DNA of 64,000 nt from Escherichia coli (GTDB lineage: Bacteria > Pseudomonadota > Gammaproteobacteria > Enterobacterales > Enterobacteriaceae): the NCBI RefSeq assembly GCF_030013595.1, contig NZ_CP122768.1. One strand, 5' to 3'. The position numbers are program-made. This document shows, in pieces, positions 54,001 through 57,000 of the stretch (position 1 is its first letter; every line of letters begins with the position of its first letter).

Positions 54001-57000
54001 TGCTGCTTTCTGGGTGAAGGGAACACCAGTTCATCATGCAGGCCACGTATATTTTCCAGAATGTAAATAGCCTGCCGGGATAAAGGAACACGATGCTGTA
54101 TCCTGGCTTTCATTCTTTCTGCAGGTATAGTCCATACCCGCTTATGAAAATCAATTTCAGCCCAGCGCATTCCCCTGGCTTCGCCCGAGCGAGTTGCTGT
54201 AAGTATCACCATTAATAACAGTGCGCGGGTAACATTATAAGGTTCATCGGTATACACACTGGTCGCCACAAAAAGCGGTAACTGCCTCCAGGGCATTGCG
54301 GGTTGGTGTTCATCACGTCCTCTTGTCTGCTGAGGAAGCAAATGGTCAACCACATCAACAGGATTTGCTACACAAAAACCGTGCGCCCATCCCCACTGCA
54401 TAACAACATGAATGCGCTGTTTAACCCGGCTTGCCGTTTCTGACAAGGTTAACCAGACTGGACGCAGTGTTTCTGCCACGTCCGCAGCCGTAATCGAATC
54501 CAGCGTTTTTGCTCCCAGTTGAGGAAACGCGTAATTCTCAAGCGTCGATAACCACTGCCTTACATGCTTTGGATTTTCCCATCCAGGAGACAGTTCTGCA
54601 TGTACACGCCTGGCTGCATCGGCAAATGTTGGGATAGCGACTTTCTCAGATTCAGCCTTTTTAATCTCCAGAGGATCATCACCTGCAGCAAGTTGCTCTC
54701 GCATTATCCGGGCAGTACGTGCAGCTTCAGCAATACTGACCTCTGGGTAAGTTCCCAATCCAGCATTACGTCTTTTTTGTGTCACCGGACTTACATAACG
54801 AAAAACCCATTTCCCCCGCCCCTTTACTGAAGAAGGATGAAGGGTCAGTCCGGTAATTCCCCCATGGGGCAATGGTTTGTCATCAGGTTTGATATGTCTT
54901 GCTTTCGTATCCGTCAATACTGCCATACGCTAATTCCCGTCACTCTGGTATGCCATCCAGTATGCCATTAGTCTCTCGCTTCACTAAGAATACATTAGAT
55001 AATATCGGACAACAAAAAGTGTAATACATTGTTTATAATGAAATTATATAACACCCCTGGATTAAGTCAGATTTATTTCAGGCGGTCCCCCTCACCGCCA
55101 TATTTAAAGAAAAGCTCGTACGAAAGTGCGAGCTTTTTTTTCGCATATTGCACTCCAGGGGGGATGAGAAGCCCCGACCGGGGTTCGACAACTGGCGCAG
55201 CCAGTTGGACAGACCACGAACGCAGTGAGTGGGCTGCCCGCAGGGCGAGCGAAGCGAGTCAATCCCCCCTCACCGCCATATTCAAAGAAGAGCTCGTACG
55301 AAAGTACGAGTTTTTTTTCGCATTTTATCTGCCTGTACGGCAGTGAACGGTATAAAAATCGAGTTTTTCTTTCGGTTGGCTTTCTAAGCTGCCTGTACGG
55401 CAGTGAACTCAAATACTACACGTCTAGCCCGTTGTTAATAAAGCAAAACCATCTCATTTTCCTGCTCCCCCCCCTTTTTTATCCTTACCTTCCCGCAGCA
55501 CTAATTATCAACAAATTACCATCATCATCAAAAAAAGGGTCTGAACCTCCTCCACCCCATAAACAAAAAGTCCGTAACCTCTTTCGAGATTACGGACTTC
55601 ACCAACCTACCTAACAATTAGATTAATGCGCTGCTTCCGCCTTGTGCTTTTGTGCACTCTGGAATCCGTAAGTCAGCTCATTTTTCTCTTTATCCAGCGC
55701 GACGGTGACCTGACCGCCGTCCACCAGCGAACCAAACAGCAATTCGTTGGCGAGCGGTTTTTTCAGGTTGTCCTGGATGACACGCGCCATCGGACGTGCG
55801 CCCATTGCCCGGTCGTAACCTTTCTCGGCCAGCCAGTTACGCGCTTCCTGGCTCACTTCCAGAGAAACACCTTTCTGATCCAGCTGAACCTGCAACTCGA
55901 CGATGAATTTATCCACTACCTGATGGATCACGTCGGTGGAGAGATGATCGAACCAGATAATGTTGTCGAGACGGTTACGAAACTCCGGCGTAAAGATCTT
56001 CTTGATCTCTTCCATCGCATCGGTGCTGTTGTCCTGGTGGATAAGACCAATCGATTTACGCTCAGTTTCTCGTACCCCAGCGTTAGTGGTCATCACCAAT
56101 ACCACGTTACGGAAGTCCGCTTTGCGTCCGTTGTTATCGGTCAGCGTACCGTTGTCCATCACCTGCAACAGAATATTGAACACGTCCGGATGCGCTTTCT
56201 CGATTTCGTCCAGCAGCAGTACCGCGTGCGGATGCTTGATTACCGCATCGGTCAGCAGCCCCCCCTGATCAAAACCAACGTATCCCGGAGGCGCACCAAT
56301 CAGACGGCTGACGGTATGGCGTTCCATATACTCGGACATATCAAAGCGCAGAAGCTCAATGCCCAAAGCTTTCGAAAGCTGTACCGTCACCTCTGTTTTC
56401 CCGACCCCGGTAGGGCCGGCAAACAGGAACGAACCGACTGGTTTATGTTCGTGACCTAAACCTGCACGCGCCATCTTAATGGCTTCAGTCAGCGCCTCAA
56501 TGGCTTTATCCTGACCGAAGACCAGCATTTTCAGGCGATCGCCGAGGTTTTTCAGGGTATCGCGGTCACTCTGAGAAACACTCTTCTCTGGAATGCGTGC
56601 AATACGGGCCACCACGGACTCAATATCCGCCACATTAACGGTTTTCTTGCGTTTGCTTACCGGCATCAGGCGTGCGCGAGCGCCCGCTTCGTCGATAACA
56701 TCAATCGCTTTATCCGGCAGATGACGATCGTTAATGTATTTCACCGCCAGCTCTACCGCCGCACGCACCGCTTTTGCGGTATAACGCACGTCGTGGTGCG
56801 CTTCATACTTCGGTTTCAGGCCATTGATGATTTGAACAGTTTCTTCGATCGACGGTTCAGTAATATCAATTTTCTGGAAGCGACGCGCCAGAGCACGGTC
56901 TTTCTCGAAAATGTTGCTGAACTCCTGATAGGTTGTCGAACCAATTACGCGAATTTTACCGCTGGAGAGCAGCGGTTTGATCAGGTTAGCCGCATCGACC

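Follow-up and report, generated by a model that had tools for sequence, protein, structure and literature searches.

The stretch of Escherichia coli DNA analysed here, 64,000 nucleotides long and referred to as the window, contains between an integrase gene and clpA the attR junction of a genomic island of the OI-43/SRL-PAI type, inserted at serW in a host that already carried one unit of the tRNA-linked repeat RtT; we assign a probability of about 0.9 to this reading. The region holds two copies of the serW 3' end, which had been interpreted, in a reading of the sequence alone, as the scar left by successive integrations at serW. Copy 1 is the only integration product of the two. Copy 2, together with the sequence that precedes it and the terminator that follows it, is native host DNA, because the same arrangement is present in ST2747, which has no island. 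The junction is a known and ordinary one: its components all belong to known kinds of element, and related RefSeq genomes annotate them accordingly. The features of the region are collected in Table 1.

Table 1. Position and nature of the elements at the island-chromosome junction (window coordinates)
Feature	Position	Strand	Description or basis
Island integrase, P4-type tyrosine recombinase	53724-54926	-	400-aa ORF; Pfam Arm-DNA-bind_3, Phage_int_M, Phage_integrase
Island-side arm of attR (island right end, int promoter region)	54927-55086	+	Cross-strain alignment
Copy 1	55087-55100	+	CCCCCTCACCGCCA, last 14 nt of serW, ser'W; 14-bp direct repeat/attR core
Intrinsic terminator hairpin 1	55106-55141	+	Native serW terminator; -21.2 kcal/mol, z-score -5.1, then T8
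RtT RNA element	55144-55278	+	Rfam RF00391; core of one 178-bp tRNA-linked repeat unit, 55101-55278
Copy 2	55262-55278	+	tRNA-Ser 3'-end mimic, the 3' end of the RtT element; exact ATCCCCCCTCACCGCCA, 17 nt
Intrinsic terminator hairpin 2	55285-55318	+	Duplicate of hairpin 1; -18.2 kcal/mol, z-score -6.0, then T8; terminator scan
Orphan type I-F CRISPR (CRISPR4.1-2)	55321-55408	-	Two 28-nt repeats, one 32-nt spacer (55349-55380)
clpA terminator	55600-55567	-	Terminator scan
clpA (chromosomal flank)	55623-57899	-	ORF 55623-57914; matches annotated clpA in all compared genomes

The island side of the junction is defined by the integrase and by the arm that separates its gene from copy 1. The integrase is identical to that of OI-43 in EDL933 at 399 of 400 positions, and the arm is the same in the window, in CB209 and in the OI-43 of EDL933, bar one base in CB209. 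The island-free ST2747 and K-12 are devoid of this arm, and serW sequence stands in its place. Identity to the island-free loci starts at CCCCCTCACCGCCA, and the DNA to the left of this breakpoint belongs to the island and not to the body of serW. This 14-bp sequence adjoins a P4-type integrase and matches the final 14 bp of serW and serX exactly. Its reverse complement, TGGCGGTGAGGGGG, has been published as the direct repeat flanking the SRL-PAI of Shigella flexneri as well as the EDL933 islands OI-43 and OI-48, the remnant of the gene being named ser'W (PMC3064760). The earlier placement of an island-chromosome junction at serW was correct. Excision of the islands has been shown experimentally, the flanking repeats being regarded as the partners of a site-specific recombination; loss of the upstream junction was reported for one strain, 95S (PMC3064760).

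The window to the left of position 55086, compared at 1-6000 and 40000-55086, matches island DNA throughout, beginning with iha. The interior is 99.8-100% identical to OI-43-type islands bearing iha; islands in many strains show this identity, and the interior looks recently shared. In UMNK88 the match reaches 100%, but the island sits at serX instead of serW. Four features of the int-proximal part match the annotated island of EcE.CRE.COL: a 'TOTE conflict system' archaeo-eukaryotic primase-domain gene, a YfjI-family gene, a frameshifted IS1 and a hypothetical ORF of 605 aa beside int (44338-46698 and 48237-49670 on the minus strand, 50832-51524, and 51720-53537 on the plus strand). The window has the 14-bp direct repeat in common with OI-43 and OI-48 (tellurite resistance/adherence, SpLE1-like) and with SRL-PAI at serW or serX, and it further resembles the OI-43-type islands in the int-proximal arm, in iha and in the insertion between infA and clpA. 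It differs from OI-43 of EDL933 in the extra RtT unit that the host locus has beside attR; in EDL933, where the island is also at serW, the junction has a single 3'-end copy because the unit is absent. Island content and length may differ from those of OI-43 and SRL-PAI, 55 kb of the island being visible in the window.

The positions quoted earlier for the two tRNA-Ser 3'-end pieces were confirmed, the string TCCCCCTCACCGCCA lying at 55086-55100 and the string GAGTCAATCCCCCCTCACCGCCA at 55256-55278. A repeat search assigned both to a 54-nt direct repeat (55087-55140 and 55265-55318) with 93% identity and a start-to-start spacing of 178 bp. As had been described, a terminator hairpin follows each copy; it consists of 15-16 pairs with a GAAA loop and is trailed by a run of eight T. 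The terminator scan overlooked hairpin 1, since its rule lets the stem absorb the T-run, and the hairpin was shown by direct folding; its counterpart in the alignment lies directly 3' of intact serW in ST2747 and K-12. In copy 2 the run of C is one base shorter than its counterpart in ST2747 and two bases shorter than that of 7CC. When the 17-mer was searched with up to three mismatches, three matches were obtained against 0.11 expected by chance, namely the two copies and one more. The latter, at 43416-43432 on the minus strand and with three mismatches, was the sole candidate for a third att copy or for the left end of the island inside the window, and was taken as a chance match.

No tRNA gene was detected by ARAGORN in the whole 64-kb window, and a permissive Rfam scan of 54000-56500, with E-values up to 10, gave no match to the tRNA model (RF00005). 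Hence, the absence of an intact serW between the integrase and clpA holds, as does the inability of the sequence before copy 2 to form a cloverleaf; the interval 55.15-55.28 kb, which had been singled out for the search of a functional tRNA, contains none, so these observations stand. The matches to MicC and to the Thr and Leu leaders at 55045-55149 and nearby were weak, far below the gathering scores and driven by the terminator hairpins, and were discarded.

The DNA between the two copies corresponds to an RtT element. The match to RF00391 spans the model completely (1-130 of 130), with E=9e-08 and 48.5 bits, 3.5 above the gathering score of 45, and the segment folds with -76 kcal/mol and a z-score of -6.0. 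Its long stem is closed by the pairing of GGGGGGAT with ATCCCCCC, the Ser type, which is replaced in the Tyr type by GGGGAAGGAT and ATCCTTCCCC; the change is compensatory, although statistically weak with two sequence types only. An internal T-arm-like motif also tracks the linked tRNA, being GGGGTTCGA in the Ser type and AAGGTTCGA in the Tyr type (window 55144-55278 compared with L008 1211-1744). The RtT core, which carries the 5' half of the T-arm of the linked tRNA, looks like the 3' part of a tRNA into whose T-loop about 80 nt have been inserted. The 3' end of RtT mimics the T-stem and the acceptor 3' strand of the tRNA, and its pairing with the G-rich 5' strand closes the long stem.

RtT is a repeat first seen 3' of tyrT/tyrV in K-12. 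The 178-bp repeat of the E. coli tyrT operon (rttR) was reportedly described by Egan and Landy in 1978, and RtT RNA is said to have been described by Boesl and Kersten in 1991. Three units are present at tyrT/tyrV of K-12 with a period of 178 bp, each ending in the last nucleotides of tRNA-Tyr, and another three RtT-like units, with a period of 181 bp, follow serX (L012 1462-2084), two of them above the gathering score and one at 36 bits. The RefSeq record of K-12 has no annotation for the serX-linked units. In the alignments the window unit matches the tyrT units and, far more closely, the serX-linked units. Where an island occupies serX, as in EcE.CRE.COL (L004 19147-19464), the order is int, direct repeat, RtT, RtT.

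The window unit shares with the tRNA-linked repeats (RF00391, tyrT rttR) the 178-bp period, an end that copies the last 17-19 nt or so of the upstream tRNA, and the pairing of this 3' tail with a G-rich 5' strand in a long closing stem. Here the duplicated end measures 17 nt and includes the CCA. RtT lies directly 3' of the tRNA and on the same strand in the island-free ST2747; in the window, island DNA has taken the place of the tRNA body. The unit differs from those of tyrT in being linked to tRNA-Ser(GGA) instead of tRNA-Tyr, the 3' end and the complementary 5' strand being changed accordingly, and in holding an intrinsic terminator hairpin, which according to the alignment is present in each Ser-type unit and absent from the tyrT units. 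The number of units also differs, one in the window against three each at tyrT and serX of K-12, and the window unit is split from its tRNA by the island. No promoter-like site was found on the plus strand of 54900-55650. Mechanical ORFs of 102-129 aa run over the RtT, terminator and CRISPR DNA (55029-55346 and 55225-55614 on the plus strand, 55104-55412 on the minus strand); the 'hypothetical protein' annotated at the equivalent place in CB209 is probably spurious.

The arrangement of the uninterrupted locus is seen in ST2747, where infA is followed by serW, a terminator, RtT, the second 3'-end copy, a terminator, CRISPR repeats and clpA. Its serW is intact by ARAGORN, with anticodon GGA (tRNA-Ser at 2427-2514, RtT at 2557-2693), and NCBI PGAP labels the RtT position as 'RtT sRNA'. 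From 55087 rightward the window is collinear with ST2747 at 97.5% identity. In K-12 the order is clpA, two CRISPR repeats, the serW terminator, serW and infA; a four-way alignment shows that K-12 differs from the ST2747 layout only by the missing 178-bp unit. The best match to the junction is that of 7CC, whose int-to-clpA segment is the same as in the window, RtT unit included (98.5% over 711 bp). The RtT element shows 93-99% conservation in thousands of genomes. In about 7 of 30 evenly spaced matches, a query that extended from the RtT core into the first CRISPR repeat was spanned as a whole, which suggests, as a rough estimate, that around a fifth of complete E. coli genomes carry the RtT unit at serW. 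As to the host, the backbone (clpA, clpS, cspD, macAB and ybjD; 53700-64000) has its best match at 99.3%, in CB209, among 5,426 complete E. coli genomes, and the host lineage is not represented among them.

The sequence-only reading had proposed that serW function was either lost or supplied from the far end of the island or by serX. Supply from the far end agrees with the related genomes. In 7CC, infA has an intact tRNA-Ser next to it, about 64 kb from the junction, and island DNA begins at once after this gene; in EDL933 the far end of OI-43 holds an intact serW, at a distance of about 87 kb from the int end. In both genomes the matching direct repeat is contained in the intact tRNA-Ser at that other end. 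At the 7CC attL (L007 39542-39585) the island supplies its own terminator hairpin (-17.4 kcal/mol) directly after the CCA of serW, replacing the native serW terminator, which stayed at attR. Since the compared sequence to the left of 55086 is island and starts with iha, the attL end with serW must lie outside the window, and by analogy with these genomes serW is very probably intact, out of view beyond position 1. For a loss of serW function no evidence was obtained.

The other side of the junction corresponds to the E. coli CRISPR-III locus, an orphan CRISPR4.1-2 array that is usual in the clpA-infA interval and has been described there (PMC3903273). The window array resembles this locus in its type-4 repeats of 28 nt, its 32-nt spacer, the lack of cas-F genes and the location between clpA and infA; its repeats are spaced at 60 bp. 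The repeat at 55381-55408 scores 50.1 bits with CRISPR-DR4 (RF01317, gathering score 35), and the one at 55321-55348, proximal to serW, is degenerate and remains below the threshold with 29.7 bits. The array differs from the CRISPR-III locus in this degenerate repeat, and from K-12 and EDL933 in its spacer. CB209 has four CRISPR repeats at the clpA-infA site. Between CRISPR and clpA, the poly-C tract CTCCCCCCCC (55461-55478) is unlike those of 7CC, ST2747, K-12, CB209 and EDL933 in both length and sequence.

According to the preferred reading, the native order of the host locus would have been infA, serW, terminator, the RtT core ending in a serW 3'-end copy, terminator, orphan CRISPR4 and clpA. 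The P4-type integrase would have recombined the attP of the island with the last 14 bp of serW in a site-specific manner, splitting the gene at CCCCCTCACCGCCA and regenerating a complete tRNA gene at attL, next to infA, with a terminator supplied by the island. Copy 1 would then consist of the 14-bp core and the original serW terminator remaining at attR. Copy 2 and its terminator, with which the 178-bp RtT unit ends, are untouched host DNA. With more than 55 kb of island between it and the serW promoter, and with a terminator ahead of it, the RtT unit is probably transcribed weakly at most, or not at all, in this genome. Some strains have the 178-bp unit and others lack it, for which unequal recombination between the 54-nt repeats would be the simplest explanation.

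The exact 14-bp core is present both in serW and at the end of each RtT unit. When the RtT tail was joined to the left end of the island in a chimeric query, none of 5,426 complete E. coli genomes covered it, and in these the left end is joined only to genuine tRNA-Ser, though RtT has the same core. Since the chimeric junction is absent, the RtT copy does not serve for integration in the genomes sampled, which implies that site recognition by the integrase may extend beyond the core. A further, improbable idea is that the integrase needs the tRNA body, so that the RtT copies would be decoys without productive integration or would offer alternative partners for excision, or else that the units derive from miniature tRNA-targeting integrative elements. 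Were they excision partners, the RtT-plus and RtT-minus alleles would arise through them. Were the origin a miniature element, the unit would share the layout of an attR, with terminator, cargo and tRNA 3' end, and the idea of a scar would be right in a deep evolutionary sense.

That two successive integrations took place at serW, each leaving a 3'-end repeat, with the remains of a mostly deleted earlier element between them, is very unlikely. This explanation would account for two direct copies of the att core with an identical hairpin 3' of each, and for the exact 14-bp sequence used by the integrase in both; tandem and secondary-site integration are moreover known for other islands, e.g. 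SGI1 (PMC2297512). However, the DNA between the copies is a full-length RtT element without island-derived sequence, homologous units follow serX and tyrV of K-12 in the absence of any island, and EDL933 carries its island at serW with one copy only. In a scar of this kind the second repeat and the inter-repeat DNA would come from an integrative element and be missing from island-free alleles, which is not what was found. Therefore, although the tRNA search left the initial observation standing, the scar interpretation fails on other grounds, because RtT and copy 2 sit directly after intact serW in ST2747.

Still less probable is that the host lacked the 178-bp unit beforehand and acquired it with the island, in the attP flank. 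RtT does adjoin the int end at serW in the window, 7CC and CB209, and at serX in EcE.CRE.COL; yet OI-43 of EDL933 has the same int end without the unit, RtT units occur in the island-free ST2747 and at serX of K-12, and the breakpoint between island and host falls upstream of copy 1 and not after copy 2. Finally, that copy 2 and the sequence upstream represent a decayed serW pseudogene, which an insertion or a rearrangement scrambled and whose function is gone, would fit the lack of a detectable cloverleaf and the upstream GGGGTTCGA motif of a sequence ending in a tRNA 3' end, but it can be dismissed almost entirely, as the element coexists with intact serW in ST2747, is 93-99% conserved across thousands of genomes and fits an independent RNA family from end to end, and as the genomes with an island at serW retain the gene at the far island end.

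Since RtT repeats with the same end are a natural feature of tRNA-Ser and tRNA-Tyr genes in E. coli, an additional tRNA 3'-end copy beside an island junction does not have to mark a second att scar. Counting the ends of RtT units as att sites would misplace island boundaries and overestimate the number of integration events. Moreover, insertion of an island at such a locus uncouples the RtT element from the promoter of its tRNA, and strains of this kind would constitute natural tests of whether the RtT RNA, still poorly understood, requires co-transcription with the tRNA.
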